This document shows, piece by piece, positions 24,319 through 48,047 of a stretch of 64,000 nucleotides of DNA; position 1 is the first letter of the stretch, and every line of letters starts with the position of its first letter. The stretch comes from Candidatus Eiseniibacteriota bacterium (GTDB lineage Bacteria > Eisenbacteria > RBG-16-71-46 > SZUA-252). The position numbers and the translations under genes were made by a program. Under the pieces are notes generated by a model. That model saw only the letters and a list, made by a program, of their open reading frames with translations, did no database searches and was not told where the DNA came from. The DNA lies in assembly GCA_003235575.1 (NCBI GenBank), contig QJVW01000115.1, positions 12,290-76,289 on the forward strand, read 5' to 3'.

Positions 24319-24348
24319 AAAATACGTCAGACGCGTGACTTCGGTCAA
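24319..24348 (-). promoter_or_regulatory. Candidate sigma70-type promoter for the atp operon (TTGACC-N18-TATTTT on the minus strand), about 25 nt upstream of atpZ
   Basis: The minus strand reads ccgTTGACCgaagtcacgcgtctgacgTATTTTtcctgg. A pattern match only. Confidence 0.35.
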
Positions 24349-27063: not shown

Positions 27064-27211
27064 GGACCACTTCGGTTCGGGCGGACGGACCGTAGGCCGA
27101 CGCCGCGGAGGCACCCCCTCAAGACCTCAAGAACGCGGTCCTTAGAGCCGATGGATCGTTTCGAGGCACATCCGCATGCAGTCAACTGCAATCACCTGAG
27201 AAGCGAGCGAC

Positions 27212-29623: not shown

Positions 29624-30057
29624 GCGAGGAACGCGTGCTGTGCACGTTCCGCGTCGCCGAGCATCTCCTCGGGCTCGACATTTCCGTCATCCAGGAGGTG
29701 TTGCGCCAGCAGGAGATCACGAGGCTTCCGCTCGCGGCGCCCGCGGTGCGCGGCGTCATCAATCTGCGCGGGCGGATCGTGCCCGCCCTCGATCTCCGAC
29801 GCTGCCTCGATCTCCCCGTCGCCGAGGGGGGGCGTCACGACGCGAACATCGTGGCGCGCGAACGGGAGGATGCGCCCGTGAGCCTGCTCGTGGACGAAAT
29901 CGGGGACGTCGTCACGGTGCCCCTGGAGTTGTGCGAAGGAGCTCCGGAAACCATGCGCGCCGCGGCGCGCGAGTTGATCCGCGGGGTGTTTCCCGTTCAC
30001 GACCGGCTGCTTCTCGAACTGGACCTGGGAAAGGTCCTGCGGGTGGCCTACGCCTAG
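29620..30057 (+). CDS. cheW: Chemotaxis coupling protein CheW (the ATG overlaps the cheA stop: ATGA)
   Basis: 145 aa [60 protein letters not shown]. The track ORF 29170 reads through from inside cheA. Confidence 0.9.
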
Positions 30058-30106
30058 ACACCGGGAGGCCCGGCACGGCCGGCCGTCACGGAAGGAGCGA
30101 ACTGTC

Positions 30107-31858
30107 ATGGTTCTCACGATTCGTCGCCAACTGGTCGGGAGCGCGCTCTTGGCGCTTCTGGGGTTCGTCATCTTCGGCGTCGTGGCCTGGTTCACGCTGA
30201 ACGAACTCAAGGTCAACGGCCCGCGTTACCACCGCATCGTCCAGGGCAAGGACCTGGTGGCCGACACCGTGCCGCAATCGGCCACCTTGATCGAGTCCTA
30301 CCTGGGCGTCCACCAGATGCTCGGCGAGACCGACCGGCGACGGCTGGACGACCTGATCCGCGAAAGCCAGCAGCTCCGCGTGCAATTCGAGGAGCGTCAC
30401 CAGCACTGGGAGCAAACGCTTCCCCCGGGCCCCCTGCGCCAGGCGCTCCACGAGCGCGCCTATCCCCCCGCGGCGGAGTTCCTGCGGGTGCGCGACGACG
30501 CGTTCATTCCCGCGGTGCGCGGAGGCGACGAGGAAACGGCGCGGCAGATCGCGGAAGGCGTTCTCAAACCGCTGTACGAGCAGCACATGAAGGCCGTCAT
30601 GGAAGTCGTGCAGCTGGCGACCACGCAGACGGAGCACGAGGAGGCCGAGGCGCTGGCGATCGCCCAGCAGCGGTCCACCCTGGTCCCGCTGGTCGGCCTG
30701 CTCCTGGCGGCGATCACGCTCGCCATCGGGCTGATCCTCTCTCGTCGGATCGTGCGCGCCATCGAGCAGATGCGCCGGGTCGCGGAGCGGACCGCCCGCG
30801 GGGACCTCACGTCCCGCGTCCAGTACACGGCGAAGGACGAGCTCGGAGACCTGGCCGCGTCGACGAACGAAATGGTCGAGTCGCTGCGCGAGGTGCTGTC
30901 GCACATCGGCGAGCGCTCGGTGACGCTGGCCACCGCCTCGGAGGAACTCTCCACCGTCTCCACGCAAATGATCGGAAGCGCCGAGGAAACGTCGCGCCAG
31001 GCGAGCACGGCCTCGGCCGGATCGGAGCAGGTGAGCCGCAGCGTGGAGAGCGTCTCGGCGTCCGTGGAGGAGATGATCGCGAGCATTCAGGAGATCTCCA
31101 AGAACACCAGCGAGGCGGCGCGCGTCGCCACGGTGGCTTCGGGAGAGGCGGACGTCACGAACGCCGCCGTGAACAAGCTCGGCACCAGCAGCGCGGAGAT
31201 CGGCAAGGTGGTGCAGGTCATCAACACCATCGCCCAGCAGACCAACCTCCTGGCGCTGAATGCGACGATCGAGGCCGCCCGCGCGGGCGAGGCCGGAAAG
31301 GGATTCGCGGTGGTCGCCAACGAGGTGAAGGAACTCGCCAACGAGACCGCGACCGCGACGAAGGACATCGGCCGGAAGATCGAGGCCATTCAGGCGGACA
31401 CGACGGACGCGATTCAGGCCATCGGGAAGATCAGCGAGACGATTCAGCAGATCACGGATATCTCCAACTCCATCGCGACCGCGCTGGAACAACAGCTTTC
31501 CACGTCGGGTGAGATCGGCCGGAACCTCGCCGAGGCGGCCCGCGGGAGCGCCGAGATCAGCGGCGGCATCGTGGCGGTCGCCGAGATCGCCCGGGATACC
31601 GCCGGCAGCAGCGAAAGCACGCAGAAGGCGGCGGAGGAACTGGCGCGGTTGGCAGCGGAGCTCCGCGGACTCACGCAGCGGTTTCACTACGCCGAACAGG
31701 GCGTCGACGCGCCGGTCCCCGAGGGGCCGTTCGCGGCGACCACGCCGGGCACGGTGGTGGCCTGGGATGCCGGCCGGGCGGCGGCGCAGCGACCTACGAA
31801 CGAGCGGGACGAGAGACGTCGCGCCGAGGACCGGGACACGCTGGCGGATGCCGGTTGA
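30107..31858 (+). CDS. Methyl-accepting chemotaxis protein (2 TM, roughly 150 aa periplasmic four-helix-bundle-like sensor, HAMP, MCP signalling domain)
   Basis: TM1 [19 protein letters not shown]; TM2 [17 protein letters not shown]; HAMP; highly conserved tip [33 protein letters not shown]. Confidence 0.93.
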
Positions 31859-31918
31859 TCTGACGTCCCGACGAAGCGCGCCGGCGCCGGCCGCCGGAGC
31901 ACGCGGAAGAGGAGGAGC

Positions 31919-32305
31919 ATGATGAAGGCCATGGTGGTAGACGACTCGAGCGCGATGCGCGCGATTCTCACGAAGCAGCTCCGGGAACTGGGCTTCGACG
32001 TCGTGCAGGCGTCGAACGGACAGGAGGCGCTTCGCCTGCTTCACGAAGATGGCGTCGTGGATCTCGTCCTCCTCGATTGGAACATGCCGGGGATGGACGG
32101 GGCCGAAGTGCTGTCGCTGTTTCGCTCCGAGCCCGCCTACCGCGAGATGCGGGTGATGATGGTGACGACGGAGAGCGAGATGTCGCAGGTGACGGTGGCG
32201 TTGGAGGCGGGGGCGAACGAATACCTCATGAAGCCGTTCGACCGCGAGTCCCTCGTCGAGAAGCTCATCCTGCTCGGGATGGATCCGAGCGGCCACACCG
32301 TTTAG
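31919..32305 (+). CDS. cheY: Chemotaxis response regulator CheY
   Basis: 128 aa MMKAMVVDDSSAMRAILTKQL...DLVLLDWNMPGMDG...VMMVTTESE...EYLMKPF; single REC domain. Confidence 0.9.
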   Translation: MMKAMVVDDSSAMRAILTKQLRELGFDVVQASNGQEALRLLHEDGVVDLVLLDWNMPGMDGAEVLSLFRSEPAYREMRVMMVTTESEMSQVTVALEAGANEYLMKPFDRESLVEKLILLGMDPSGHTV

Positions 32306-32315
32306 CGAGGGGCGC

Positions 32316-33395
32316 ATGGGCCGGATTCGAATTTTGGTCGTGGACGACGTCGCGATCGTTCGGCGTTTGGTCGTGAACGCGTTGGCGGTGGACGCGGACA
32401 TTCAGGTCGTCGGGACCGCGGCGAACGGCCGCGAGGCGCTGGCGAAGATTCCCCAGGTCCGCCCCGACTTGATCATTCTGGACTACGAGATGCCGGAGAT
32501 GGACGGCCTCGAGACGCTGAAGGAAGTGCGGCGACTGCACCCCGGCATTCGCGTCATCTTCTTCTCCTCGTACACGCGCCAGGGGGCGAAGGTCTCGCTG
32601 GAGGCGCTCTGGCAGGGAGCCGATGACTACGCCGCGAAGGTCACCGCCGACAATCTCGCGGCGGCGACGCTTTGCGTTCAAAACGACCTGTTGCCGAAGA
32701 TCCGAGCCCTCTGCGCACGCATCACGCGCGACGCGCCGGGCCTTCCTGCGGCGCCCGCGCCGGTGGTGGAAGCCGGCGGCGCGCCCTCCCACGCTCCCGC
32801 CGAAATCGTGGCGATCGGCGCCTCCACGGGCGGACCGCGCGCGCTCTCGGCGGTGATCGAGTCGTTGCCGAACGATTTCGCCCTGCCCATTCTCGTCGTG
32901 CAGCACATGCCGCCGTTGTTCACGCGGTCGTTGGCCGAGCGGCTGGCTTCCCGTTCGACGTTTCGCTGCATCGAGGCGGTCGACGGGTGCGTGGTCGAAC
33001 GGGGCACGATCCTGATCGCACCGGGCGACTGGCACCTGGTGGCGGTCCGGGAGGGAGACGTGGTCCGCGCGCACCTGACGGCGGATCCCCCCGAGAATTC
33101 GTGCCGGCCGGCTGTCGATCCGCTCTTCCGCTCGGTGGCCGAGGCCTACGGCGCCGGGGCGATGGGCATCCTCCTGACCGGCATGGGTCAGGACGGGCTG
33201 GCGGGGGCGCGTCGCATCCGCGAGCGGGGCGGCTCCGTGCTGGCGCAGGACGAGGCGAGCAGCGTGGTCTGGGGGATGCCGGGCGCCGTCGCGCGCGCCG
33301 GGCTCGCGAACAAGATCGTGCCGCTTCCGGAAATGGCGAGCGAGATTCTCAAACTCTCGAAGGCGGCGGGGCGCAATCGCGCCGCGGTTTCGTGA
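32316..33395 (+). CDS. cheB: Chemotaxis protein-glutamate methylesterase CheB (REC plus methylesterase)
   Basis: REC: RILVVDDVAIVRRL...DLIILDYEMPEMDG. CheB catalytic domain: IVAIGASTGGPRAL...VVQHMPPLFTRSLAERL...GMGQDGLAG. Confidence 0.95.
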   Translation: MGRIRILVVDDVAIVRRLVVNALAVDADIQVVGTAANGREALAKIPQVRPDLIILDYEMPEMDGLETLKEVRRLHPGIRVIFFSSYTRQGAKVSLEALWQGADDYAAKVTADNLAAATLCVQNDLLPKIRALCARITRDAPGLPAAPAPVVEAGGAPSHAPAEIVAIGASTGGPRALSAVIESLPNDFALPILVVQHMPPLFTRSLAERLASRSTFRCIEAVDGCVVERGTILIAPGDWHLVAVREGDVVRAHLTADPPENSCRPAVDPLFRSVAEAYGAGAMGILLTGMGQDGLAGARRIRERGGSVLAQDEASSVVWGMPGAVARAGLANKIVPLPEMASEILKLSKAAGRNRAAVS

Positions 33396-34279
33396 CCGAC
33401 CAAAGCACGGGACCCCGCGCCGGCGCCGTCGTGCCGCGACCAGACGCGCCCGGAGTCGATCCGGCCGGCTATGCCTACCTGCAGCGGCTGATGCTGGAGG
33501 AGACCGGGACCATTCTCGAGCCGGGCAAGGAGTACCTCGTCGAAGCGCGGCTCCATGCGTTGGCGCAGCGGGAGGGCTGTGCCTCGGCATCGGCCCTTCT
33601 CGAAGCGCTCCAGACGGAGGAGATTCCGGGACGCCTCCATCGATGGGTGATCGAGGCGATGCTGAACGGTGAGACCTCGTTCTTCCGGGATCACTATCCG
33701 TTCGAGGCCTTGCGAACATCCATCCTTCCGGAATTGATGGGACGACGCGCCGCGGTCAAGACGCTCCACGTCTGGAGCGCGGCGACGGCCAGCGGCCAGG
33801 AGGCGTACAGCCTGGCGATGTTGATCCTCGAGTCCGCGCCCGCCTTCCAGGATTGGCGGATCCGGATCCTCGCCACCGACGTCTCGGAATCGATGCTCGA
33901 ACGCGCCCGGGCGGGCGTGTACCGGCAAATCGAAGTGAATCGGGGGCTTCCCGCCCCCTGCCTCGTGAAGTATTTCGAGCGGTCCGGCCAGGACTGGAAG
34001 GTGAAGGAGCACGTGCGCTCGATGGTCGAATTCGACCACGTCAACCTGGCGCGACCCTGGCCGGCGCTTCCCCAGCTGGACGTGATTTTTCTTCGGAACG
34101 TGCTCCTGTACTTCAGTTCACAAGCCCGCAGGACGATCTTAGAGGGTGTCACGCGACATCTCCGCCCCGACGGGTACCTGTTCCTGGGGGGCGGAGAAAC
34201 GGTTCTCGCTCTCGACCGTACGTACGAATCCATCCGGGTCGGCAAGGCGGTCTGCTTTCGCCGCAAGGCGGCGGTTTGA
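33392..34279 (+). CDS. cheR: Chemotaxis protein methyltransferase CheR (the GTG start overlaps the cheB stop)
   Basis: TSFFRDHYPFEAL...LHVWSAATASGQEAYSLAML...IRILATDVSESMLERARAGVY...DVIFLRNVLLYFS; SAM-dependent methyltransferase CheR motifs. Confidence 0.92.
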   Translation: MTDQSTGPRAGAVVPRPDAPGVDPAGYAYLQRLMLEETGTILEPGKEYLVEARLHALAQREGCASASALLEALQTEEIPGRLHRWVIEAMLNGETSFFRDHYPFEALRTSILPELMGRRAAVKTLHVWSAATASGQEAYSLAMLILESAPAFQDWRIRILATDVSESMLERARAGVYRQIEVNRGLPAPCLVKYFERSGQDWKVKEHVRSMVEFDHVNLARPWPALPQLDVIFLRNVLLYFSSQARRTILEGVTRHLRPDGYLFLGGGETVLALDRTYESIRVGKAVCFRRKAAV

Positions 34280-34310
34280 GCCGGAATCGCAGGACCGACG
34301 AGGGAAACCC

Positions 34311-34793
34311 ATGAGCACGGCGACCATCGATCTTCAGGAATGGCTGACCTGCCTCACCGATGTGGCGAACGATTTGGCCACGAACCATCTCCGGTTCGAG
34401 AGCAGCACGGAACAGGCCGACGCCACGATCGGGGCCGGCGTTCATCCGGCCGTCTACGTCGCCATTCTCGGCTCGCGAAACAGCATGCACCTGGGTCTCT
34501 CCGCCACCACGGCGGGATGTCATGCGCTGGCGCGCGCCTTTCTCGGCCTGCGCGGACGCGAGGATCTCACGGAGCGGGAAGTCATCGACGGGATGAGCGA
34601 GATCCTGAACATCCTGGCGGGCAAGGTGAAGTCCCGCATGTCGACGCGCGATGGATCCCTGAAGCTGGGGCTTCCGATGTTCGTGGCCGGCACCGTCGGG
34701 CACGGCGAGGGCGTCGAGAGGGCGGATCACGAGGTGTTCCTGGGACCGGTCCCGTGCCGGCTCCACGTCTTCCGGCAGAGCCGATCGGTGTAA
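34311..34793 (+). CDS. cheX: CheX/CheC-family chemotaxis phosphatase (CheY-P phosphatase)
   Basis: 160 aa; MSEILNILAGKVKSRM is the characteristic CheX motif and AVYVAILGS...MHLGLS fits the fold. The real ATG is internal to track ORF 34146. Confidence 0.7.
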   Translation: MSTATIDLQEWLTCLTDVANDLATNHLRFESSTEQADATIGAGVHPAVYVAILGSRNSMHLGLSATTAGCHALARAFLGLRGREDLTEREVIDGMSEILNILAGKVKSRMSTRDGSLKLGLPMFVAGTVGHGEGVERADHEVFLGPVPCRLHVFRQSRSV

Positions 34794-34807
34794 GGGGGCC
34801 TACGGTC

Positions 34808-36202
34808 ATGAATCGTCGATCACCAATGTTCACGCGACGCGCGATCCTCTTGATCCCCTTCCTCGCGGCGTTGGTGTTCGCGGTCCCCGCAGCCGACCGG
34901 GCGGACGCAAGCCGGGGGCGGAGCAACCTGGTCCTCGCGGGCGGCGTTCCCGGGGAAACCTTCGGATGCTCCGTGGCCTCCGCGGGCGACGTCAACGGCG
35001 ACGGGTATGTGGACGTCATCGTAGGCGCCTACCAGAGCGGAACCGCCGGGAGCCCAACCGGTCGCGCCTACATCTATTACGGCGGTCCCGGCGCCGACGA
35101 GCGGGCGGACGTGATCCTGACGGGAGAAGCCGCCGGGGACGCGTTCGGCGTCAGCGTGGCCGGCGCGGGCGACGTGAACCGGGACGGCTATGCCGACGTC
35201 ATCGTCGGCGCCTATGAGAACGACGGTCGCGGCGCGAACGCCGGCCGCGCGTACATCTATTTCGGCGGACCGAAGATGGATGCCAGCGCCGACGTCGTCC
35301 TGAACGGCGAAGCGGCGGGCGACGCATTCGGGTATTCCGTGGCGGGCGCGGGCGACGTGAACCGTGACGGCTATGCCGACGTTCTGGTGGGAGCGTACGA
35401 GAACAGCGCCGCCGGCCCCGGCGCCGGGCGCGCGTATCTGTACCACGGCGGGCCGAAGCCCGACGCGGTGGCCGACGTGATCCTCACCGGTGAAGCCGCG
35501 GGAGACCGTTTCGGCATCTCGGTGGCGGGCGCGGGCGACGTGAACGGCGATGGATTCGCCGATGTCGTCGTCGGCGCCTACCAGAACGACGCCGGGGGCC
35601 GGGATGCCGGGCGCGCCTACGTGTACTACGGCGCCCCGCGCCTGGGCATGCGACCGAACGCCGTCTTGACGGGATCCGCGGAGGGCGACGCCTTCGGCTT
35701 CGCCGTCGCGGGCGCCGGAGACGTCAACAAGGATGGGTTCGCGGACGTGATCGTCGGCGCCTACCACAACGACGCCGGCGGAAAGGACGCCGGAAGGGCG
35801 TTCGTCTACTTCGGGGGCGCGAACTTCTCGACGAAGGCTGACGCCGTTCTGACCGGCGAGGGCGCGGGCGATGCCTTCGGATACGCCGTCGGCGCCGCCG
35901 GCGACGTGAACGCCGACGGCTACGCCGACCTCTTGGTCGGCGCGTATGGAAACGACGCGGGCGGGTCCGCCGCGGGCCGGGCCTACGTGTTCTACGGGGG
36001 CACGACGCCCCACCTGACCTCCGACTTCAGCCTCACCGGTGGATCGACCCTCGACAACCTCGGCTTCGCGGTCGCGGGATCCGCCGACCTGAACGGCGAC
36101 GGCTACGCGGATATCGTCGTCGGGGCGCCCTACAGCGACTCGGGGCGCGCGCACGTCATCACGACGGTGGGCGCGAACTCCCGCCCCGTCGCCTCGCGCT
36201 AG
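34808..36202 (+). CDS. Secreted FG-GAP repeat (integrin-alpha-like beta-propeller) protein with seven or more repeats
   Basis: Signal peptide MNRRSPMFTRRAILLIPFLAALVFAVPAADRADA. Roughly 60-aa repeats of F/YG.SVA.AGDVNGDGYADVIVGAY...GRAYVYYGG, the FG-GAP/Ca-binding D-x-N-x-D-G signature. It is the last gene of the che operon. Confidence 0.9.
   Translation: MNRRSPMFTRRAILLIPFLAALVFAVPAADRADASRGRSNLVLAGGVPGETFGCSVASAGDVNGDGYVDVIVGAYQSGTAGSPTGRAYIYYGGPGADERADVILTGEAAGDAFGVSVAGAGDVNRDGYADVIVGAYENDGRGANAGRAYIYFGGPKMDASADVVLNGEAAGDAFGYSVAGAGDVNRDGYADVLVGAYENSAAGPGAGRAYLYHGGPKPDAVADVILTGEAAGDRFGISVAGAGDVNGDGFADVVVGAYQNDAGGRDAGRAYVYYGAPRLGMRPNAVLTGSAEGDAFGFAVAGAGDVNKDGFADVIVGAYHNDAGGKDAGRAFVYFGGANFSTKADAVLTGEGAGDAFGYAVGAAGDVNADGYADLLVGAYGNDAGGSAAGRAYVFYGGTTPHLTSDFSLTGGSTLDNLGFAVAGSADLNGDGYADIVVGAPYSDSGRAHVITTVGANSRPVASR
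34930..36190 (+). repeat. Roughly 180-bp periodic coding tandem repeats (FG-GAP units) within the preceding CDS
   Basis: The repeated nucleotide blocks ggcgcgggcgacgtgaac(c/g)g(c/t)gacggctatgccgacgt recur about every 180 bp. Confidence 0.7.
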
Positions 36203-36292: not shown

Positions 36293-37966
36293 CTAGGACG
36301 TGTGCCCGGCTTCCTCGGGGTCAGCCGCTGTGCGCGGGGGCGCCCAGGGCGCCGTGTTCTTCACGACGGGGATGGTGCCTTTGTTGAGGGCTTCCACGAA
36401 CACGGAGACGACTTCCGGCGCGAACTGGGTTCCCGCCTTCTCGGTCATCTGCGCCACCGCCTGTTCCATGGTGAGCCCGGCGCGATAGGGGCGATCCGTG
36501 GTCATGGCGTCGAATGCATCCGCGACGTTCACGATCTTCGCCGCGAGCGTCATCTCCTCGCCCGTCAACCCATCGGGGTATCCCTTTCCGTCCACCCGCT
36601 CATGGTGGTGACGGATCATGTCGATGCAGCGCTCCAGGAAGCGGACGCCGCGGACCATCTCGGCGCCGCGGACGGGATGCATCTTGACCATCCTCCACTC
36701 CTCGTCGGTCAGCGCACCCGGCTTGTGGAGGACCTTGTCCTCGGTGTGTACCTTTCCGATGTCATGCAGGAAGGCGCCGAATTGGATCCGCTGCACCTCC
36801 TCGGGGTCGAACTCCAGCGCCCGCGCGATGCCCACCGAATAGGCCGCGACGCGCTCGGTATGGCCGTGCGTGTACGGATCCTTCTCTTCGATCCGGGAGA
36901 CGAGCAGCCGGACGGTGGAGACGTAGGCCTCCTGGAGATCCTTGAATAGCCGCGCGTTCTCGATGGCGATGCCGGCCGATTCCGAGAGCGCACGAAGCAT
37001 TTCCAGGTCCGCCGCCTGGAACTCCTGGCCGCTGACCTTCTCCCCGATCGCCAGGACGGCGACCAGCCGGTTCTTCATGATGACCGGCGAGACCAGCGTC
37101 AATCCCGCCGCGTAGAGCTGCCCCACCTCGCGCTCGAACCCGCGGTGGTGCTCCACGGAGGCGAGTCGCACCGGGCGCGGGTCCTCGCTCCCGGGTGCGT
37201 GGAGGGAACGAATGAATTCTCCGTTGTAGTCGAGCACGATCGAGCGCGCCTGCTCCTCCTTCATGCCCTTGAAATTGGAGGCGTCCAGGCGCGTCGGGCT
37301 CTCCCGGTCGTCGGTGAGGAAAAGACAGGCGGCGTTGACGCGCAGCTGGCCCATCACGCTGAGGATCAGCGTTCCCAAGAGGCCTTCGAGATCAAGCGAC
37401 GCGTTGAGCTGGTGCGTCAAGCCCATCAGCGTCTCGAGGCTGTAGACCTGGAACCGAAGCTCCTTGTTCCGGACCAGCAGATCCTCGCGGTTTCGCTGCA
37501 CCTCGGATTCCAGCTCCTGGTTCTTTCCCGCCAGGGCGTCGTGCCGCTCCAGCCGCTCGAAGATGCGACGGACCTTGATGAGCAGTTCCTTGGGAGAGAA
37601 CGGCTTCGTCAGGTAGTCGTCCGCGCCGTGCATCAGCCCCTGCAGCCGCGAGTCGACCTCCGCGCTGGCGGACACCATCACGATCGGGATATGCGCGGTG
37701 TCGCGCGTACTCTTCATCGCGGCGCACACTTCGAATCCCGTCTTCTTCGGCAGACGCAGGTCCAGGATCACGAGATGCGGCGGGGTGCGGCGCACGATCT
37801 CCAGCGCATCCTCCCCCGACATCGCGGTCAGGACGCGGTATCCGTTCTGGGTCAGCGAGATCTGAAGCAGCTCGACAACGCGGCGATCGTCGTCCACGAC
37901 GAGGATGGTCCGCTTTCCTTTCGCAGGACCGGCTTCGGTGGCCGGCCGGAGGCTTTCGGTGCTCAC
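36293..37966 (-). CDS. Response regulator REC-(coiled coil)-GAF-HD-GYP (c-di-GMP phosphodiesterase-type output)
   Basis: REC: TILVVDDDRRVVELLQ...HLVILDLRLPKKTGFEVCAAMK...DDYLTKPF. GAF-like middle region. HD-GYP: FLHDIGKVH ... IRHHHERVDGKGYPDGLTGEEMTLAAKIVNVADAFDAMT. Confidence 0.9.
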   Translation of the reverse strand: MSTESLRPATEAGPAKGKRTILVVDDDRRVVELLQISLTQNGYRVLTAMSGEDALEIVRRTPPHLVILDLRLPKKTGFEVCAAMKSTRDTAHIPIVMVSASAEVDSRLQGLMHGADDYLTKPFSPKELLIKVRRIFERLERHDALAGKNQELESEVQRNREDLLVRNKELRFQVYSLETLMGLTHQLNASLDLEGLLGTLILSVMGQLRVNAACLFLTDDRESPTRLDASNFKGMKEEQARSIVLDYNGEFIRSLHAPGSEDPRPVRLASVEHHRGFEREVGQLYAAGLTLVSPVIMKNRLVAVLAIGEKVSGQEFQAADLEMLRALSESAGIAIENARLFKDLQEAYVSTVRLLVSRIEEKDPYTHGHTERVAAYSVGIARALEFDPEEVQRIQFGAFLHDIGKVHTEDKVLHKPGALTDEEWRMVKMHPVRGAEMVRGVRFLERCIDMIRHHHERVDGKGYPDGLTGEEMTLAAKIVNVADAFDAMTTDRPYRAGLTMEQAVAQMTEKAGTQFAPEVVSVFVEALNKGTIPVVKNTAPWAPPRTAADPEEAGHTS

Positions 37967-39666
37967 GAGTTGGTCTCCATGGAAACGGACGTATGGTTTC
38001 CGGTCGCGTCGCGCGCGCCGGCGTGCTGGTCGGAATCGCGGGTCTCGGCGGCGTGACCGCCGTCCGGAATGGTCGCGCCGGCGCCCAGGGGGTCGAGCAC
38101 GGCCCGATCCACGGCATGACCGGAGGCGCGCTCGGCGGCGGCGGCCGACGCCTGTTCGGCCCGGAGGCGGGAACGGCGCTCGGTCTTCTCCAGCACGCCC
38201 AGGAACACCTCCACCATCGAGGGATCGAACGGGGCGCCCCAGTTTTCCGAGATGACCTGTCGCGCCTTGTCGCGCGGCAGGGCCCGCCGATAGGGCCGTT
38301 CGCTGGTCATCGCGACGTACGCGTCGACCAGGGAGACGATGCGGGCGCCGAGGGGAATGTCCTGCCCCTTCAGGCCCGACGGATAGCCCTCGCCGCCCCA
38401 GCGCTCATGGTGATTGCGCACGACCTCCACGACCTCGGGCGAGAAGTCCATCTCCTCGAGGATCTGCGCACCACGCGCCGGATGTTGCTTGATCAGCGAC
38501 CACTCCTCCGCGGAGAGATGCGCCGGATTCTTGAGGATGAGATGACTGACCGCCAGCATGCCGATGTCGCGGAGTGCCGCCCCGTAGATCAACGCCTTCA
38601 CGTCGGCGCGGGGCACTTGGAGGAGCCGCGCCATGGCGGTGACCAGGCGCACCACGCGCTCGGTGGATCCCTTCGCATACACGTCGCGGCTTTCGATGAG
38701 GGACATCATGCCCCGCACCACGCCCAGATTTCGATCTTCCATCTGGCGATGGAACCGGGCATTGGCGATCGCGACGGCGGCCTGGTGCGCCAGAATCGTG
38801 AGCAGGTCCCGCTCGTCCTCCTGGAAACCGCGGTCTCCGCCGCGCGCGCCCAGGAAGAGCATGCCGATCAGTTCGCGACGCACCCACAAGGCGACGCCCC
38901 ATTCGAGTCCGGAGGCGCGGAGCGTGCGCGCGGCGCCCGCGGCGTCGGGGAGCGCCTCGGCTCCGACCATCGGCTCCGCGGCCGCCGTGGGCGCCAGCGC
39001 CAGGGCGTCCTCGAGGGTCGTGAACGTGTCGGCCTCCGCCATGGCCGCGATCGAAGCCGCCGACAGTTTCGTGTCGCGGAATTGGTCCCGCGCGAATCCA
39101 CGAACCTGGCGGGGGATGAGAACGCCCTCGCGGTCCGGGTCGTCGAGAAAGAGCGCCAGGCGCTCGACGCCGAATTGGCCCATGACCGAGAGCCCGAAGA
39201 GGTTGAGCACCTCATCCAGATCGTGGGCGAGGTTCAGCGCCTGCGTGATCTCGAAGAGATTTCTGAACTCGACGATCTTCAGGCGCAGCTTGGTTTGCAG
39301 CGCGGCGTGCTCCGCCACGCTCGGCCCGCCGGGCGGAACCGACGCTTCCTCCGTGGGGGAGTTCGAGGCGTAGATCTGCGCGCCCGATTCGAGGAGCGCC
39401 TCGCGGACGCCGCCGCGAATCCCCCGGACGATGATCCGCCGGGCCGCGCCTTCGTAGGCGCGCGCTTGCCGCTGGATCACGGACACGGCGAGCGCGGAGA
39501 CGTCGCTGACCTCGTCGAAGTCGAGGTGCACTTCCCGCGCGTCCCGGGCCAGACATTGAACCAGGAGTTGATCGAGCGCGCGTGCGCCCGCGGCGTCGAC
39601 GACCCCCCGGAGCGAGAACCGGAACTCGTCGCGCGGTTCGCCGCGGACGAGGTGAAGGCCCTTCAA
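37963..39666 (-). CDS. STAS (anti-sigma-antagonist-like)-GAF-HD-GYP protein; probable TTG start overlapping the upstream stop (TTGA)
   Basis: STAS: LKGLHLVRGEPRDEFRFSLRGVVDAAGARALDQLLVQCLA...EVHLDFDEVSDVSALAVSVI...RIIVRGIRGGVREALLESG. GAF region. HD-GYP: AALRDIGMLAV ... VRNHHERWGGEGYPSGLKGQDIPLGARIVSLVDAYVAMT. The track ORF extends to 40500 through roughly 270 aa of Arg/Gly-rich sequence that overlaps the upstream gene and is implausible. Confidence 0.75.
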   Translation of the reverse strand: MKGLHLVRGEPRDEFRFSLRGVVDAAGARALDQLLVQCLARDAREVHLDFDEVSDVSALAVSVIQRQARAYEGAARRIIVRGIRGGVREALLESGAQIYASNSPTEEASVPPGGPSVAEHAALQTKLRLKIVEFRNLFEITQALNLAHDLDEVLNLFGLSVMGQFGVERLALFLDDPDREGVLIPRQVRGFARDQFRDTKLSAASIAAMAEADTFTTLEDALALAPTAAAEPMVGAEALPDAAGAARTLRASGLEWGVALWVRRELIGMLFLGARGGDRGFQEDERDLLTILAHQAAVAIANARFHRQMEDRNLGVVRGMMSLIESRDVYAKGSTERVVRLVTAMARLLQVPRADVKALIYGAALRDIGMLAVSHLILKNPAHLSAEEWSLIKQHPARGAQILEEMDFSPEVVEVVRNHHERWGGEGYPSGLKGQDIPLGARIVSLVDAYVAMTSERPYRRALPRDKARQVISENWGAPFDPSMVEVFLGVLEKTERRSRLRAEQASAAAAERASGHAVDRAVLDPLGAGATIPDGGHAAETRDSDQHAGARDATGNHTSVSMETNS

Positions 39667-41369
39667 GCGTCCGCTCCTGCCGCCGGCGCGGCGGCGCCGA
39701 TGGCGTCCGGCGTTCCCAGGAGGCGGAGACGGCGCATGACGGCCGCCGGGTGGAGCACCAGCGTCACTTGGTTGTCGACCCCCACGATACCGCCCAGAAC
39801 CTCCTCGACCGGGTAGAGCCGCGGTGGAAGGGGGGAGAGCCGCGCATTCTCGCGCCAGACGATACGGTCGAAGCCCACCGCGCCGGTCTCCTTGCCGGAG
39901 CGAAGGATCGCCAGCGGGCCGTCGGCCGGTTGCGGCGGCGAATCGTCCGCCTGCCCCGGACCGAACAGCGACGCGAGGGGCACGACCCTGGCGCCACCTC
40001 CCCCTCCCGACCAGACCAACTCCTCGCGGGAAGCGTGGATTCGTTCGATGGCGCTCCACGGGAGCGCGATCCGCTGTCCCGAGACTTCGACGATGAGAAA
40101 ACCCCGCAGCGAACGCGCCATGGGAAACTGCATGTGCACGACCGAGGTCCCGGGCTTCCCGCCCTGATGCGTGACGAAGCCGCCTAGCTCTTCGAGCGCG
40201 GATTCCAGCCGCGCGATGGATTCCGAATCGAAGGCGACGCGGCCCTCGATCGCCAACCTCGCCTCCAAGCCCTCGCGCGCGGCGGTGACGCGAAGCTGGC
40301 GCGACGTCTCCCCTTCCGGAGATTCGGCCGTTTCCAGAACGCGATAGATCGACGGCAGGAGCATCGATCCGATTTCGGGCTCGAAGCCGACGCCGCCCGT
40401 GTGCACCGTCAGGACGCTTCGCCGCTCCGCCGTGTCGCGGCGGGCCGCGGCGGCGTAGATCTCGTCCACGAATCGGTCCAGCGGATCCAGGAATTCCCAC
40501 AGCAGGTGTTCATCCAAGTCGCGCGCCCGACGTTCCAGCGAGTACTGAACGCCCAGCAGTTGATGGATGTCGTGGGACAGCGAACGCATCCCGGTCGCGA
40601 CCTCCTCCAGGGTCTGATGCACCTCGATGGCCCGGGCCGTGACGTTTTGGCGGCGCGCGGGCGACGGTTCCGCCGGACCGCGACCGCTCGACGCAGTCTC
40701 GCCGGGAGCCAGACGGTCGGGATCGATGGCCTTCATGAACTGGTCCCACTCCGCCAGCACCCGCTGGACGGATCGGAGCATCGCGCCCAACCCCTCGCTG
40801 ATCGAGCCCATGCGGTCGTTCTGGCTGACGAGCGAGGACTTGATCTCAAAGGTCAGCGCGAGCAGGTTCTCCCGCGGCGCCATGTCCGGCGTCGCCTCGT
40901 CGATCACCCCGCGCGACGCGTTCAGCGCCTGCGCCTTCGCGCGGCTCAGCGAGGAACGCAGGTTGTCGATGGCGTCCCCGACGGAGGAAGCGTGGGCGAG
41001 CAGGGCGGCGAAGCCTTCGGTTCGCAATTGCTGCGCCAGGCGATCCTGCGCCTCGAGCGCCACGCGGCAATGCGCCACCAGCGTCTCGCGCTCCTCGGGG
41101 CGCACGTTGCCGAGCCGCACGAGGCTCTCCTGCAGCTCGCGCGCCAGGGACGCCACGCTCCCGATATCGAGCCAATCCGCGCTTCGCTCCACGAGCCGCA
41201 CGGAGAGTTCGACGATGGGGCCGAGTTCGTGCGATCCGAGATCGGGCTCCTCCGTGTCGAGGAAGGTGCGCACGATGTCGATCTCCTCGCGCATGAGCGC
41301 GCTGAACGTCGCGCTCAACCGAGACATGATTTGCTCGTTGCTGAGGTGTTCCGAAGCGGCGGTGCGCAT
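39663..41369 (-). CDS. CheA-like scaffold protein with degenerate Hpt and ATPase domains (no phospho-acceptor His, no N/G1/G2 boxes) and an intact C-terminal CheW-like domain
   Basis: The P1-like region ELSVRLVERSADWLDIGSVASLAREL aligns with FRVFHTIKGTCGFFGF of the canonical cheA in this window but has E/R where the His should be. The P4-like EFLDPLDRFVDEIYAAAARR lacks the N-box Asn/His, and SVLTVHTGGVGF replaces the DxGxG motif. ...GTSVVHMQFPMARSLRGFLIVEV then the CheW domain (IALPWSAIERI...GPLAILRSGKETGAVGFDRIV). Confidence 0.75.
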   Translation of the reverse strand: MRTAASEHLSNEQIMSRLSATFSALMREEIDIVRTFLDTEEPDLGSHELGPIVELSVRLVERSADWLDIGSVASLARELQESLVRLGNVRPEERETLVAHCRVALEAQDRLAQQLRTEGFAALLAHASSVGDAIDNLRSSLSRAKAQALNASRGVIDEATPDMAPRENLLALTFEIKSSLVSQNDRMGSISEGLGAMLRSVQRVLAEWDQFMKAIDPDRLAPGETASSGRGPAEPSPARRQNVTARAIEVHQTLEEVATGMRSLSHDIHQLLGVQYSLERRARDLDEHLLWEFLDPLDRFVDEIYAAAARRDTAERRSVLTVHTGGVGFEPEIGSMLLPSIYRVLETAESPEGETSRQLRVTAAREGLEARLAIEGRVAFDSESIARLESALEELGGFVTHQGGKPGTSVVHMQFPMARSLRGFLIVEVSGQRIALPWSAIERIHASREELVWSGGGGGARVVPLASLFGPGQADDSPPQPADGPLAILRSGKETGAVGFDRIVWRENARLSPLPPRLYPVEEVLGGIVGVDNQVTLVLHPAAVMRRLRLLGTPDAIGAAAPAAGADA

Positions 41370-41392
41370 GGAGTCGGCTCCCTTCGGCGTGC

Positions 41393-42922
41393 CTACCTGG
41401 GTCCGCCCGGCTGAATTCCCTCGAGCCAGTCGGGGATCTTTGGTTCGATCGGCGCCGTCGACGGGGTCTCGCCCTCCGGCTCGGCCGCGGCCGCGGGCGC
41501 GTCGTTCGCTTCCGGCACCGCGTCGTGAAGCGACGCGGGATCGACGGGGCGCGGCTCCACGTGATCTTTGGGCCCCGCCGGCGTGACGGGTTCGAACGGA
41601 TCGTCGAACGAAGCGTCCGCCGAGGGCGCCTCCGCCGGGGGCTCGAAGCGGCTCACCTCGTCCTCTACGGGAACGCCGTCCGCCGCGGCGCCGTCGGCCG
41701 GGCCTTCCGTGATCGCGGCGTCGTGGTTCTCGTCGATTTCGATCGCACTCATCCGTGACGGTTCGCTCTCCTCGACCCCGACGGGTTCGGCCACCGTCGG
41801 CGGCATCGCCGCTCCCTCTTCGAATTCTTCGATCGACGCACCGAGCCGCTCGCGCAACCCGCGGGTCCGCGCCACCAGCGATTCCAAGGACTCCAGCGCC
41901 GCCGGCGATACCGCCGGCGCGCCGACATCCGCATCGGTGCCGATCGACGCCACCGCGGCCTTCGCGTCCTCGCTGCTCGATTGAATGGAGGCGATGGTGT
42001 CGCCCACCTTGAATTCGATCTCGCTCGAGAGCCGGGAGATCGTGTCGGTGGCCTCGCGCGCGTACTCCGCGAGGCGACGCGTTTCCTCGGCGATCGACGC
42101 GAACGCCTCGCTGCCCGAGCGGGTGGCCTCGAGGGCCGCGTTCAGCGCCAGAAGCGTCGCGCGGTTGGTGACTTTCTCGGCCACGCCGGTCAGTTCGTTC
42201 GCGCGCATCAGCCCCGCGGCCAGATCCTCGATGCCGTCGGCGGCCGTGCGCACCAGCGCGTCGACCATCGCGGCGGGCGACCCGTTGCCGCCGTTCCCCG
42301 CCGGCGTGGAGCCCGACTGAAGCGTCCGCAGGACGGCGGCGAGATCGGTCTCGAGCGAGGCGAGCCCCTCGTCATAGGTCCGAAGCGTACCGACCGCCTT
42401 GCGCCCGACCTCGCGATCGTACGGCGCGGTGGGAGGAACGGCTTCGTCGGAGCCGATCAACTCATCGGCCGCGTACGCGGGACGCGGCTCATGAACCTCC
42501 GGCTCCGTTGGGGAGTCGTCCTGATCCCGGCGCACCTTCTCGAGCTCGAGGAGCGCCATCGCCGAGGCGCGTTGCGCGGCGGCGCTGGACGCGACCTCCC
42601 GGTAGAGCGACTGCCACGGTTCCGTGCGAAACGAGGCCGGCGGCTCGTTCGGCGCTTGGTCGGAAAGCGCGATGTCGAGTAGCGCGGACACCTTCGCGGC
42701 GGGCGCGCCCGCGGCCTGAGCGGCCAGCGCCGTGCAAATGCCGGCGCTGGCGAGGCCGACGACGACCCCGACGGCGACGCCAAGCGTTCCGCCGAGGCCG
42801 AACGCGGCTGCGGCAGCCGCGACGGCGCCGAGGAACGAGACGACGAACACGCCAGCGGACGGCTTGGCGGCGCCCTGCCTATCCGGCGTGTGCTTCCCCG
42901 ATTCGCGAGCGGCATCCGTCAT
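41393..42922 (-). CDS. Short membrane-anchored MCP-like protein (divergent MCP signalling tip, no HAMP, acidic/Pro-rich disordered C-terminal tail of about 200 aa)
   Basis: N-terminal hydrophobic segments VFVVSFLGAVAAAAAAFGLGGTLGVAVGVVVGLASAGICTALAA. MCP tip homolog ELTGVAEKVTNRATLLALNAALEATRSGSEAFASIAEETRRLAEYAREATDTISRLSSEI (compare [33 protein letters not shown] in the canonical MCP). The tail is rich in E/D/P/A. Confidence 0.7.
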   Translation of the reverse strand: MTDAARESGKHTPDRQGAAKPSAGVFVVSFLGAVAAAAAAFGLGGTLGVAVGVVVGLASAGICTALAAQAAGAPAAKVSALLDIALSDQAPNEPPASFRTEPWQSLYREVASSAAAQRASAMALLELEKVRRDQDDSPTEPEVHEPRPAYAADELIGSDEAVPPTAPYDREVGRKAVGTLRTYDEGLASLETDLAAVLRTLQSGSTPAGNGGNGSPAAMVDALVRTAADGIEDLAAGLMRANELTGVAEKVTNRATLLALNAALEATRSGSEAFASIAEETRRLAEYAREATDTISRLSSEIEFKVGDTIASIQSSSEDAKAAVASIGTDADVGAPAVSPAALESLESLVARTRGLRERLGASIEEFEEGAAMPPTVAEPVGVEESEPSRMSAIEIDENHDAAITEGPADGAAADGVPVEDEVSRFEPPAEAPSADASFDDPFEPVTPAGPKDHVEPRPVDPASLHDAVPEANDAPAAAAEPEGETPSTAPIEPKIPDWLEGIQPGGPR

Positions 42923-42938
42923 GACGTGCTCCCTTCCT

Positions 42939-43505
42939 TCATCGACTACCGAGCCCGCTCAGGCGAAAGGCGGCGGGCGGTGCGACCGAATCCATCAACG
43001 ACCAGTAATCCAGATGCCGTGCGTGGCGGCCTTGAACGTCGTACACGGCGAGGACGGCGGGCTCGCCGTCGGCGGGCGCCGCCGTGGCGGAGGCCTCCAA
43101 CTCGGAGAGGTCGGCCACGTCGCCGGCCGCGACGGCCGGAGGAACAGGCTCGGGGTCCGGAACGGCGCACTTCAGTTCCACCACGTCGCGCCCCGGAATC
43201 AGCCGCGGCATGCCACGAACCAGGAGCGCGATCCGATCGGTGCCCCGCTCGAGGACCACGGCATAGGCGGGCGGGCTCGGCGATGCGTCGCCGCCGAGCG
43301 CGGATTCGACGTCGATCGCCGGCACGACGGAGCCGCGAAACGCGACCACGCCGGCCATCGGAGGAACGCGTCCCGGAAGCCGCGCCAGGTGCTCGGCCTC
43401 GAGCAGTCCCGCCACTTCGTCCACGGGGGCGGCGAGAAGTTCGTCGCCGGCCTCGAAGACGACGAGGCCGCGCACGCCGAGCACCGTCCGCCTTGGTTGA
43501 TCCAT
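42939..43505 (-). CDS. CheW-like coupling protein with an acidic C-terminal extension (start at the internal MDQPRR)
   Basis: MDQPRRTVLGVRGLVVFEAGDELLAAPVDEVAGLLEAEHLARLPGRVPPMAGVVAFRGSVVPAIDVESALG...AYAVVLERGTDRIALLVRGMPRLIP is a CheW fold. The track ORF starts 21 codons upstream. Confidence 0.75.
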   Translation of the reverse strand: MDQPRRTVLGVRGLVVFEAGDELLAAPVDEVAGLLEAEHLARLPGRVPPMAGVVAFRGSVVPAIDVESALGGDASPSPPAYAVVLERGTDRIALLVRGMPRLIPGRDVVELKCAVPDPEPVPPAVAAGDVADLSELEASATAAPADGEPAVLAVYDVQGRHARHLDYWSLMDSVAPPAAFRLSGLGSR

Positions 43506-43965
43506 GGAGCCACTCCGTCCTTTGAAGGCGAGCTGAAACCTGTACGAATGAAGAAAGGCAAGTAACATGCCACGAACGACTTCCGCCGAATCACGCTAAC
43601 CCTTTGCCGTGTAGCGGCTTCGTACTCATCCAATCGGCAGGTTCCCGGCGTTGTGGAGGGCTTTTGGTCAGCGGCCGCCGGGCGTGTTGCAATCCTGGCC
43701 GTATTCCGCAATCCCCCACCCATCCGGCGGTAAAACACACCCACCCAGAGGGCTAAATCCGACCAGAGGCTGGGCTGATCGAGCCCTTCGGCGCCGCCGC
43801 GGCGGCGAATCCACTTGCGACCATGTTGTTGTAAATAAATCGCTTACACGTCTGGAGCGACGTTTCCGGCGGCTCGGCACGCGGCGTGCAGTGGCAGGGA
43901 GTCGAAGGCCGCGGAGATCGGAAGCCGCGGCGAGGAGTGGACGGAAAAGAGAGGGGGGCAGGGAC

Positions 43966-44745
43966 ATGGCGGGAACGAGAAAGGCGGTCGCGGGCAAGGC
44001 AGCTCTCCGGAAGATCCGGCCGCACGCCTATGTAGCCATGAATTGCCTTCTTCTTACTCGGGCGGAAGGTACGCCTCAAAACGGTGATCCCTTGCCGCAG
44101 GAGGATGTGAATGCGTACCTCGACGCGTTGCGCGACCAATTGGAAGCCAACGTGCCGCTTCCGCCCGAGCGGACCCGTCTTCTATCTCGGTACGACATCG
44201 CCGCGTGGCGGCGTCTGGCCGGCGCGACCCACGGCTCGCTGAAGTACACGATCTACCGGACCGCGCAAGACCTGCTGCTCGTGTCGGTGGGGATCTTCGA
44301 ACAGAGCGGTCCGTACGTGCCGTCCCGTCGCGAGGGAATGCTGCCCGGCGAGGAAGCCGACATGGGACGGAGTCCGGGCTGGTACCACTTCTCGTACACG
44401 TACGGCGAGCTTCTCGAGAATCCGACGTCGACGTTGGGAACGGTGCTCGAGAAGCTGACCGTGAGCCTGGAGCGGTACCACAAGATGCTCTCGCACATGA
44501 AGGGCGAGTACTGGAGCATGGTGTCGCGGTTCGAGGATGCGCACGTGCTTCGGCTCGAGCGCACGGTGGACGAGGACGCCAGGGAACAGGCGATCCGTGA
44601 AATGCAGGACCGTCTTCTCGACGCCTACGGCGAATGGAAGCGCACCGGGCAACGGAAGCACTTGGACCAAATCCGCGGCATCGCGCGCGAGATCCGCACG
44701 CTTTCGCCCGACTTCACCTTCTCGCTTCCCGCGGGGAATCCCTAG
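43966..44745 (+). CDS. Hypothetical protein (259 aa), divergently transcribed from the Che-like cluster; start at the internal MAGTRK
   Basis: Amino-acid composition is not antisense-like (Y, W, K, E-rich: GWYHFSYTYGELLENPTSTLGTVLEKLTVSLERYHKMLSHMKGEYWSMVSRFE). I recognise no family. The upstream 105 codons of the track ORF are Arg/Gly-rich. Confidence 0.55.
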   Translation: MAGTRKAVAGKAALRKIRPHAYVAMNCLLLTRAEGTPQNGDPLPQEDVNAYLDALRDQLEANVPLPPERTRLLSRYDIAAWRRLAGATHGSLKYTIYRTAQDLLLVSVGIFEQSGPYVPSRREGMLPGEEADMGRSPGWYHFSYTYGELLENPTSTLGTVLEKLTVSLERYHKMLSHMKGEYWSMVSRFEDAHVLRLERTVDEDAREQAIREMQDRLLDAYGEWKRTGQRKHLDQIRGIAREIRTLSPDFTFSLPAGNP

Positions 44746-45466: not shown

Positions 45467-47993
<2,527 letters not shown>

Positions 47994-48047
47994 TTTTTTT
48001 CCGCCCGTTTCCCGCCCCCGGTCGGGGCCGCGCCGCGTGGTACGCTC

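Follow-up and report, generated by a model that had tools for sequence, protein, structure and literature searches.

A conserved Eisenbacteria operon that joins chemoreceptor-array components and a predicted CheA-derived pseudokinase with a pair of HD-GYP proteins

A five-gene operon of array components and HD-GYP proteins

The g1-g5 operon is located on the minus strand at positions 36293-43505 of the 64,000-nucleotide stretch analyzed here (the window; part of contig QJVW01000115.1 from a Candidatus Eiseniibacteriota bacterium). In operon order, g1 is a CheW-like coupling protein, g2 is a minimal membrane-anchored receptor, g3 is a descendant of CheA that is predicted to be kinase-dead, g4 carries STAS, GAF and degenerate HD-GYP domains, and g5 is a response regulator with a receiver (REC) domain, a GAF domain and an intact HD-GYP domain. 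The operon thus encodes what a receptor core unit requires, namely the tip of a receptor, CheW, and a homolog of CheA that has P3 and P5 domains. The five-gene module is a conserved unit that stands alone in evolutionary terms, and it probably represents chemosensory machinery that has been turned to the control of second messengers, in this case with no phosphotransfer involved. Its content suggests an array scaffold that might gate HD-GYP activity. The original prediction, which was made from the letters of the window, had proposed such a combination of array parts with HD-GYP proteins, and the domains identified bear it out. It had also recognized no named system, and searches of the literature on this set of genes, on chemotaxis in Eisenbacteria and on cyclic di-GMP (c-di-GMP) together with kinase-dead CheA indeed found no description of the system, no paper on it and no name.

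The coding signature is strong in all five open reading frames (ORFs), with a G+C content at third codon positions (GC3) of 0.81-0.87. The window as a whole has a G+C content of about 68%, and the names of homologues point to Candidatus Eisenbacteria (Eiseniibacteriota). The genes are closely packed. The TAG stop of g1 is followed by 16 nucleotides that include GGAAGGGAG and then by the ATG of g2, and the TAG stop of g2 is followed by 23 nucleotides that include AAGGGAG and then by the ATG of g3. The stop codon of g3 overlaps the TTG start of g4 in the sequence TTGA (39663-39666), with AGGAG located 7 nucleotides upstream, and the stop codon of g4 overlaps the GTG start of g5 in the sequence GTGA (37963-37966), with GGAG upstream. 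Independent gene calls by the Joint Genome Institute on two contigs of identical sequence give the same products of 568, 567 and 557 amino acids. The original claim of five co-oriented, coupled genes with these overlaps and a 23-nucleotide gap agrees with the coordinates and junctions, and we regard the five-gene anatomy as secure, with little room for doubt.

The 460-base-pair noncoding region between g1 and a divergent gene (43506..43965) is presumed to be a putative promoter region of the operon. It includes a Shine-Dalgarno-like AAAGGACGGAG upstream of the g1 ATG at 43505. Scans of this region for the sigma-70 consensus and with Rfam gave no match, and scans for promoter and terminator consensus sequences gave nothing informative.

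The CheA-derived protein g3

The g3 protein (39663..41369, 568 amino acids) comprises a P1-like domain, long helices, a P3-like region, a degenerate P4 domain and a P5 domain. Domains throughout the operon were assigned by using Pfam, which gives for g3 a single weak, subthreshold CheW-like match at residues 457-547 (E = 0.0034). Hpt, H-kinase_dim and HATPase_c were not found in g3 by Pfam, and HATPase_c is absent even at E = 0.1. Searches of PDB with phmmer and of NCBIfam gave no match. Because these plain sequence searches yielded just the weak CheW match, the CheA ancestry of g3 is visible only from profiles and structure prediction. The 170 close members of the g3 family are all annotated as hypothetical, and essentially all of them come from Eisenbacteria.

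In an AlphaFold2 model built on 30 homologs (predicted local distance difference test score 77.8), a four-helix bundle comes first and is followed by very long helices, then by a small alpha/beta domain and finally by a C-terminal domain rich in beta structure. When this model is compared with PDB by using Foldseek, the top matches are all P3-P4-P5 portions of CheA (6s1k_A with E = 1.2e-14, followed by 3ja6, 1b3q and 2ch4). A family profile of g3 was also aligned by hhalign with a canonical CheA profile made from the CheA of the window and 20 others (21 in all). The alignment has a probability of 99.5%, an E-value of 1.7e-22 and 511 aligned columns, and residues 14-557 of g3 are collinear with CheA 4-632. 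Against PDB, the family profile matches the C-terminus of P4 and the P5 domain of Thermotoga maritima CheA (E = 6e-6). Foldseek, hhalign and the PDB profile search agree in placing the P3 dimerization hairpin, P4 and P5 of g3 in the CheA order. Because of the P1-P5 collinearity, the CheA matches of the model and the fact that canonical CheA is the nearest outgroup, we conclude that g3 is a full-length CheA descendant, in which an extended helical region stands for P2 and the linkers.

An exhaustive search with a hidden Markov model (HMM) of g3 covered 1.84 billion cluster representatives. It found only three full-length g3-family clusters at 50% identity, plus fragments, after which the E-value jumps from 1e-176 to 5e-13. 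The matches beyond this jump are mainly ordinary CheA kinases that align to residues 376-545 of g3 only, the end of P4 and P5. This discontinuity and the identity of the outgroup indicate that the g3 family is a narrow and highly diverged offshoot of CheA.

Several observations indicate that g3 is kinase-dead. The P1-like four-helix bundle (residues 11-120, 41010..41339) lacks the phospho-acceptor His. In the profile alignment, the phospho-His position of CheA corresponds to an invariant Arg, R58, and helix 2 of the bundle has a His in none of the homologs. The HxxKG, N, G1, F and G2 motifs occur in 0 of 38 family members scanned, and the canonical CheA of the same window has all five (HTIKG with His52, HLIRNAIDHG, DDGAG, FLPGFT and GRGVGMD, respectively). 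At the N box, L345 and E349 of g3 occupy the positions of the His and Asn, and g3 has lost IDHGI. Alignment gaps of 18, 7 and 24 residues take the place of the G1, F and G2 boxes. According to the model and the alignment, the degenerate P4 domain (residues 297-418, 40116..40481) is the core of the ATP-binding fold minus the ATP lid; it has five strands and three helices, and 33 of its 122 columns are invariant. The absence of HATPase_c and Hpt matches, the motif counts, the gapped boxes and the replacement of His by R58 all argue that g3 has no kinase activity. The P5 domain, a CheW-like array-docking domain, is retained at residues 419-545 (39735..40115), as judged from the Pfam CheW match and the profile comparison with PDB. 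The original prediction had described a CheA paralog that lost its phospho-His and its N, G1 and G2 boxes and kept its docking domain, and the profile-profile alignment and motif scan uphold the description on each point.

The residue H126 of g3 was considered as a relocated phosphorylation site and was rejected, because no HxxKG motif surrounds it and it is not on helix 2.

The coupling protein and the minimal receptor

The g1 gene (42939..43505) encodes a CheW-like coupling protein of 188 amino acids (Pfam CheW, E = 5e-15, 55.7 bits). Mean pairwise identity is 58% in its N-terminal half and 40% in its C-terminal half, and g1 is a CheW with a diverged C-terminal half.

The g2 gene (41393..42922) encodes a minimal membrane-anchored receptor of 509 amino acids. 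Its match to Pfam MCPsignal (E = 3e-11; 43.8 bits against a cut-off of 34.6) is partial and extends over positions 25-123 of the 172 in the HMM, which correspond to the tip region only. The protein consists of two back-to-back transmembrane helices (residues 21-71), a variable linker, a conserved hairpin tip and a disordered tail rich in Pro, Ala and Glu. The hydrophobic N-terminal stretch is found in all full-length g2 orthologs at a length of 40-55 amino acids, and its sequence is not conserved. In the window it has about 50 residues, equivalent to two adjacent transmembrane helices without a periplasmic domain. Conservation defines a receptor-tip core at residues 215-321 (41960..42280), which includes LLALNAALEATRSG-SEAFASIAEETRRLAE. 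This 107-amino-acid core has a mean pairwise identity of 91%, with 72 of 107 columns invariant, whereas the rest of g2 is at about 34%. The hairpin tip is two residues shorter at its turn than that of the canonical methyl-accepting chemotaxis protein (MCP) of the same window. Pfam finds no HAMP and no sensor domain in g2, and the conserved core, in an alignment judged by eye, has no methylation-helix region and no [EQ][EQ]xxA[ST] site.

Many g2 orthologs (in loci L005-L038) have a short conserved motif at their C-terminal end (41393-41440 in the window), after the disordered tail, which is long and is itself not conserved. The motif is PKIPDWLEGI.P in close relatives and EGILLIEGLKPG in others, and one g2 subclade entirely lacks the C-terminal tail. 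In Escherichia coli receptors, a C-terminal tether motif serves to recruit CheR and CheB, and the layout of g2 is reminiscent of it.

The two HD-GYP proteins

The g5 gene (36293..37966; GTG start) encodes a REC-GAF-HD-GYP response regulator of 557 amino acids (Pfam Response_reg, E = 4e-28; GAF; HD_5, E = 3e-39). Its best PDB matches are PmGH (4mcw, E = 1.4e-47) and V-cGAP3 (5z7c, E = 3.4e-43). On alignment with PmGH, which is a trinuclear-iron enzyme, the HD-GYP domain (residues 345-525, 36392..36934) has the equivalents of H189, H221-D222, K225, H250, H276-H277, GYP and D305, which is the full set. These catalytic residues are kept in all true orthologs that cover the domain, where identity is 80% and 103 of 181 columns are invariant. 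The active site of g5 thus appears intact, and the protein is a predicted phosphodiesterase. In the receiver (residues 19-140, 37547..37912; 85% mean pairwise identity), the DDD residues, the acceptor Asp (ILDLRLP), the S/T residue and the Lys (TKPF) are kept in nearly all true orthologs; one reads ILDQRLP. Two receivers that lie beside HisKA kinases, at 8.5 and 14.6 kb of the window, share 46% and 42% identity with the g5 receiver, compared with 30% for CheY and CheB. Because of this closer relationship to the HisKA-adjacent receivers, a route from CheA to the g5 receiver is not obvious.

The g4 gene (37963..39666; TTG start) encodes a protein of 567 amino acids in which Pfam detects HD_5 (E = 5e-32), GAF and STAS_2. 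It is a paralog of g5, with 32% identity over GAF-HD-GYP, and its best solved relative is V-cGAP3 (5z7c, E = 3.9e-40), well ahead of PmGH. Alignment with PmGH indicates that the HD-GYP domain (residues 310-500, 38167..38739) is degenerate. H189 is replaced by Ser, H221 by Arg (RDIGM) and K225 by Met, and DGxGYP reads GGEGYP; in PmGH numbering, H250, H276/H277, D305 and GYP are retained. Judged by the metal-ligand set together with GYP, g4 falls short. The changes are common to all of the approximately 32 g4 orthologs, which have RD[IV]G[MT]I and never a His at the first site. The domain is nonetheless as conserved as the live domain of g5, with 83% mean pairwise identity and 90 of 191 columns invariant. 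Because two metal-ligand His residues are lost in all orthologs while the domain is strongly conserved, g4 is predicted to be a conserved pseudo-enzyme and not a second phosphodiesterase. The original prediction of two phosphodiesterase outputs is thus not borne out. Degeneracy of the HD-GYP domains, which it had named as a finding that would count against it, is observed in g4 and is not observed in g5.

The STAS domain of g4 (residues 8-100, 39367..39645) gives a borderline STAS_2 match in the full protein. When the N-terminus was additionally scanned alone, the match reached 30.4 bits, against a cut-off of 29.2, and STAS_2 is matched in 16 of 16 g4 orthologs, at best with E = 1.5e-12. In the segment DVSALAV, for which a candidate phospho-Ser had been proposed, S57 does align with the phosphorylatable Ser of SpoIIAA-type proteins. 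Across 34 orthologs, however, the position is Ser in 24, Cys in nine and Ala in one, and no partner-switch Ser kinase of the GHKL type or PP2C phosphatase is found in the operon or among its conserved neighbors. Because of the Cys and Ala residues in 10 of 34 orthologs and the lack of a kinase or PP2C phosphatase in the operon, a phospho-switch does not appear to be a conserved feature of the g4 STAS domain.

Distribution and conservation

The cluster is carried by 36 species-level loci in a survey of one genome per GTDB species, nearly all of them labeled as Eisenbacteria. The order g1-g2-g3-g4-g5 on a single strand is present in every one of the 36 loci whose contig reaches far enough, and g1 precedes g2 in all loci that extend so far. 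The operon is an Eisenbacteria-specific five-gene unit of an uncultured soil phylum. The ORFs are intact and their order is unchanged at sequence identities of 42-79%. Moreover, the "dead" or reduced parts are among the best conserved, including the g2 tip (91%), the g4 pseudo-HD-GYP domain (83%) and the g3 P4 domain (33 of 122 columns invariant), and the degenerate parts are under strong purifying selection. Because gene order is kept and the "dead" parts are among the most conserved, the module is more readily understood as functional than as decaying.

Upstream of the cluster is a divergent conserved gene for a protein of 259 amino acids (43966-44745, plus strand; hyp259), followed by IMPDH. 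The hyp259 protein has no Pfam or NCBIfam match. Every locus of sufficient extent has the gene at this upstream position, with 71-90% identity, which is above that of most operon genes. The synteny around it (IMPDH, an outer membrane protein (OMP), TilS and FtsH) is generally conserved too, so conservation does not decide whether hyp259 belongs to the system.

Proposed function and alternative explanations

It is plausible that the operon encodes a phosphotransfer-independent array scaffold that gates HD-GYP activity, and we hold this proposal at about even weight for and against. From the domains retained, g1, the g2 tip and g3 (with its P1-like domain, P3, lid-less P4 and P5) would assemble at the membrane like the core unit of receptor, CheW and CheA. 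g3 lacks the phospho-acceptor His and the ATP-binding motifs, so the signal would pass by protein-protein contact and not by phosphorylation. The scaffold might either localize the g4/g5 pair or control it allosterically. The output would be this paralogous pair, with g5 acting as a phosphodiesterase gated by its REC and GAF domains on a substrate that is probably c-di-GMP, or alternatively 3'3'-cyclic GMP-AMP (3'3'-cGAMP). The g4 gene is coupled in translation to both of its neighbors, g3 and g5, and its product most likely acts as an adaptor or regulator between the scaffold and g5, by forming a heterodimer with g5, by docking its STAS domain on g3, or both. Such a heterodimer would probably resemble the pairing of degenerate and active HD-GYP domains in V-cGAP3. 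The g5 receiver would be phosphorylated by a kinase encoded outside the operon, and g5 would also integrate a ligand of its GAF domain. The presence of other c-di-GMP-type proteins in the window, a REC-GGDEF-like protein and two hybrids of histidine kinase, GAF and HD-GYP, supports the proposal.

A more specific version is that the array signals by partner binding in place of phosphotransfer. The conformational state of the receptor would be passed to the lid-less GHKL-fold P4 domain of g3, from there to the STAS domain of g4, and finally to g5, which the pseudo-HD-GYP domain of g4, once freed or captured, would switch on or off through heterodimerization. P4 might bind and release the STAS domain much as SpoIIAB-type GHKL kinases bind their STAS antagonists. 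We consider this version tentative and unlikely. If it is true, then it would represent a new signaling logic for receptor arrays, and the core of the pathway would be formed by two pseudo-enzymes, a pseudokinase and a pseudo-phosphodiesterase.

Several observations weigh against the scaffold proposal. The P5 domain of g3 is below the Pfam cut-off and the CheW match of g1 spans only the N-terminal two-thirds of the Pfam model, so ring formation is not guaranteed. g2 has no recognizable input domain, and a g2 array may serve localization alone. For g5, the best PDB matches include one c-di-GMP enzyme and one cGAMP enzyme. The REC-GGDEF-like neighbor reads GGDDF, and c-di-GMP synthesis is not demonstrated from the window. 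The steps of assembly, binding and enzymatic action that go beyond domain content are those that we infer from sequence.

The module might instead be an accessory of a canonical array. g1 and g3 would dock through CheW and P5 into the arrays of the neighboring che genes, in the way of ParP, CheV or CheA3 of Rhodobacter sphaeroides, and would bring the HD-GYP pair there; the real CheA would phosphorylate the g5 receiver, and chemotactic input would set local cyclic-dinucleotide levels. A complete che operon (CheA, CheW, MCP, CheY, CheB, CheR and CheX) does converge on the cluster here and at seven other loci, and the FG-GAP gene in between swaps strand and operon between lineages. However, che adjacency is absent in at least 10 loci, and the identity of the g5 receiver to CheY and CheB is 30%, versus 42-46% to HisKA-adjacent receivers. 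The module also has its own receptor, with a conserved hairpin core of 107 amino acids compared with roughly 250 in a canonical MCP, and receptors that differ in length sort into separate arrays. We therefore regard an accessory role as unlikely. A relay between split kinases, in which a real CheA phosphorylates g3 in trans at a noncanonical residue, such as the invariant H126, and g3 then phosphorylates or dephosphorylates the g5 receiver in the manner of CheA3 and CheA4 of R. sphaeroides, strikes us as very improbable. It would account for the retention and conservation of the P1-like bundle and for the invariance of H126 in 30 sequences, and split CheAs do exist (PMC6829392). Yet the canonical His position is an invariant Arg, helix 2 is without His, HxxKG is found in 0 of 38 members, and H126 is on the long fourth helix, past the region that aligns confidently to P1. 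Moreover, the operon contains no kinase-competent CheA, and the neighboring CheA is not conserved in position.

Alternately, the scaffold could be as proposed and its chemistry different. g4 and g5 might act on another nucleotide, for example 3'3'-cGAMP or in the turnover of pGpG, or g4 might be the real output as a nucleotide-binding receptor. The best solved relative of g4 is the cGAMP-specific V-cGAP3, the 5z7c structure gave two matched stretches, consistent with tandem HD-GYP domains, and g4 holds H250, H276/H277, D305 and GYP under strong constraint. However, the full-length search places g5 slightly nearer to PmGH than to V-cGAP3, the window showed neither a CD-NTase nor a DncV-like gene, and the substrate specificity of HD-GYP domains is not readable from sequence with the methods used. 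A different chemistry seems to us rather more doubtful than an accessory role, and clearly less so than the kinase relay. Finally, the loss of catalytic motifs in g3 and g4 and the truncation of g2 could be taken as signs of evolutionary debris, that is, of a decaying duplicate of a che operon without current function. This explanation was rejected, and we assign it almost no weight. The five ORFs are intact and in order in every sufficiently long locus among 36 species-level genomes, the substitutions are fixed (R58 in g3 and the RDIGM type in all g4 orthologs), and the degenerate domains show the highest conservation, a pattern that effectively refutes decay.

Chemoreceptor arrays are understood as controlling one enzyme activity, the autophosphorylation of CheA. 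This lineage has kept the receptor tip, CheW, P3 and P5, apparently under strong selection, while the ATP lid was deleted and the phospho-His was replaced, which suggests that an array can be of use for its architecture alone, as a scaffold for allosteric control or localization. The operon is a small, concrete system for studying how arrays pass conformational signals to partners that are not kinases, and how pseudo-HD-GYP domains regulate active ones. Because the operon contains no essential cofactor partners, its five proteins should be reconstitutable in a heterologous host.

Comparison with known systems

With regard to the features of a chemosensory pathway, the five-gene module has an MCP signaling domain, and it has no active CheA, no CheB or CheR and no methylation sites. 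The Wsp system of Pseudomonas, which belongs to the ACF (alternative cellular function) class (PMC8846402), is similar in that a receptor, a CheW-like protein and a CheA-like protein are encoded together with a REC-gated c-di-GMP enzyme, and in that the output is a second messenger and not the flagellar motor. However, the CheA-REC hybrid WspE is an active kinase with WspR as its substrate, whereas g3 has neither REC nor kinase motifs. The Wsp output is a GGDEF cyclase and that of the cluster is HD-GYP. Wsp also includes CheB and CheR, and its receptor is full-length, can be methylated and has a periplasmic domain, in contrast to the tip-only g2.

CheA3 of R. sphaeroides, which works with CheA4 (PMC6829392), resembles g3 in being a CheA homolog that is not itself an active kinase and is placed in a receptor cluster through P5. 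CheA3 keeps a phosphorylatable P1 His and a phosphatase region and has no P3 or P4. In contrast, g3 retains P3 and a lid-less P4, and an Arg stands in place of the His. The kinase of the CheA3 pathway is provided by CheA4, whereas g3 has no kinase partner in its operon.

FimL is a relative of ChpA. A recent preprint refers to it as a scaffold in the Pil-Chp system (bioRxiv 10.1101/2025.05.21.655318), and FimL is like g3 in being a kinase-less descendant of the CheA family that serves as a scaffold linking a response regulator to other machinery. It differs from g3 in working beside an active ChpA, in having no dedicated receptor or CheW, and in feeding type IV pili and cyclic AMP, and it has no specific sequence relationship to g3 beyond the CheA fold. 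The exhaustive search with g3 also found proteins with FimL_2nd and CheW, P0160 and P0177, whose P4 is not recognized by Pfam as HATPase_c. This finding suggests that kinase-less relatives of CheA arose more than once. Such descendants are not a one-off, since a second, unrelated FimL-like family is present in the same search.

P0160 and P0177 (locus L041, 587-3385), which come from other metagenomes, have about 900 amino acids and align to g3 across P3-P4-P5. Pfam gives CheW only, with a precomputed FimL_2nd match for P0177, and HATPase_c is matched in neither. The two seem to form an independent family of CheA/ChpA relatives without a kinase.

The HD-GYP pair also has partial counterparts. 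V-cGAP3 of Vibrio cholerae (5z7c) pairs a degenerate HD-GYP domain, which we take to have a regulatory role, with an active one. In V-cGAP3, however, both domains are in one chain, STAS, REC and GAF domains are lacking, the enzyme is specific for 3'3'-cGAMP, and it is not linked to chemosensory proteins. REC-HD-GYP regulators of the RpfG type and PmGH (4mcw) share with g5 the logic of a REC-gated HD-GYP domain and the full metal-ligand set. However, g5 differs from them in three respects. It carries an additional GAF domain, placed between the receiver and HD-GYP; its operon encodes no cognate histidine kinase; and its translation is coupled to that of a dead paralog. Precedents exist for control of a c-di-GMP enzyme by a STAS protein (SiaABCD) and for STAS genes in che operons (PMC9239204), in which a STAS-type domain is likewise tied to a c-di-GMP enzyme and to chemosensory genes. 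Those systems use a separate STAS protein together with a dedicated kinase and a PP2C phosphatase, whereas the STAS domain of g4 is fused to GAF and pseudo-HD-GYP domains, has no such kinase or phosphatase, and does not conserve the serine.

Neighboring genes and other features of the window

A complete canonical che operon on the plus strand converges on the cluster and ends about 1.5 kb from g5. It encodes CheA (27200-29623), CheW (29620-30054), an MCP (30104-31858), CheY (31922-32305), CheB (32316-33395), CheR (33431-34261, found by tblastn with the CheR of locus L001) and CheX (34311-34784), and is followed on the same strand by a gene for an FG-GAP repeat protein (34790-36199). The original prediction that no CheB or CheR accompanies the cluster consequently holds inside the operon and does not extend to this adjacent one. 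Seven further species-level loci share this convergent arrangement. CheB and CheR were not found downstream of the cluster in at least 10 loci whose sequence continues for more than 3 kb past it. In locus L003, an F-type ATPase operon directly follows g5, and in the window the ATPase operon is at 17-24 kb. The block between the ATPase operon and the cluster (approximately 24100-36200) contains a gene of the sigma-70 family (24785-25609) and the whole che operon. Because of the arrangement in L003 and the loci without CheB and CheR, this block is lineage-specific and was either inserted here or lost elsewhere.

The FG-GAP gene switches strand by lineage. It follows CheX on the che strand in the window and in loci L006, L012, L013, L018 and L021, and it is co-directional with g5 in L001 (15086-16495) and L014 (15102-16448). 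The gene call in L001 begins 4 nucleotides before the g5 stop. The canonical CheA of the window has two CheW-like stretches by Pfam, with about 170 residues past the first P5.

A second signaling cluster is located on the minus strand at 8536-15228. It comprises a stand-alone REC protein (8536-9039), two large HisKA-HATPase_c-GAF-HD-GYP hybrids (8973-11942 and 11561-14419) that both contain HDVGM and HHER.DG.GYP, and a protein resembling REC-GGDEF (13945-15228), in which GGDDF replaces the GGDEF signature. A histidine kinase fused to HD-GYP is an unusual architecture. The g5 receiver has its closest relatives in the two receivers of this cluster (42-46% identity).

A tRNA gene (47919-47990, plus strand; Rfam RF00005, 67.9 bits) is located between the OMP and IMPDH genes and TilS. 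It overlaps the start of a long TilS ORF (47940-49145), so the true start of TilS is probably further downstream.

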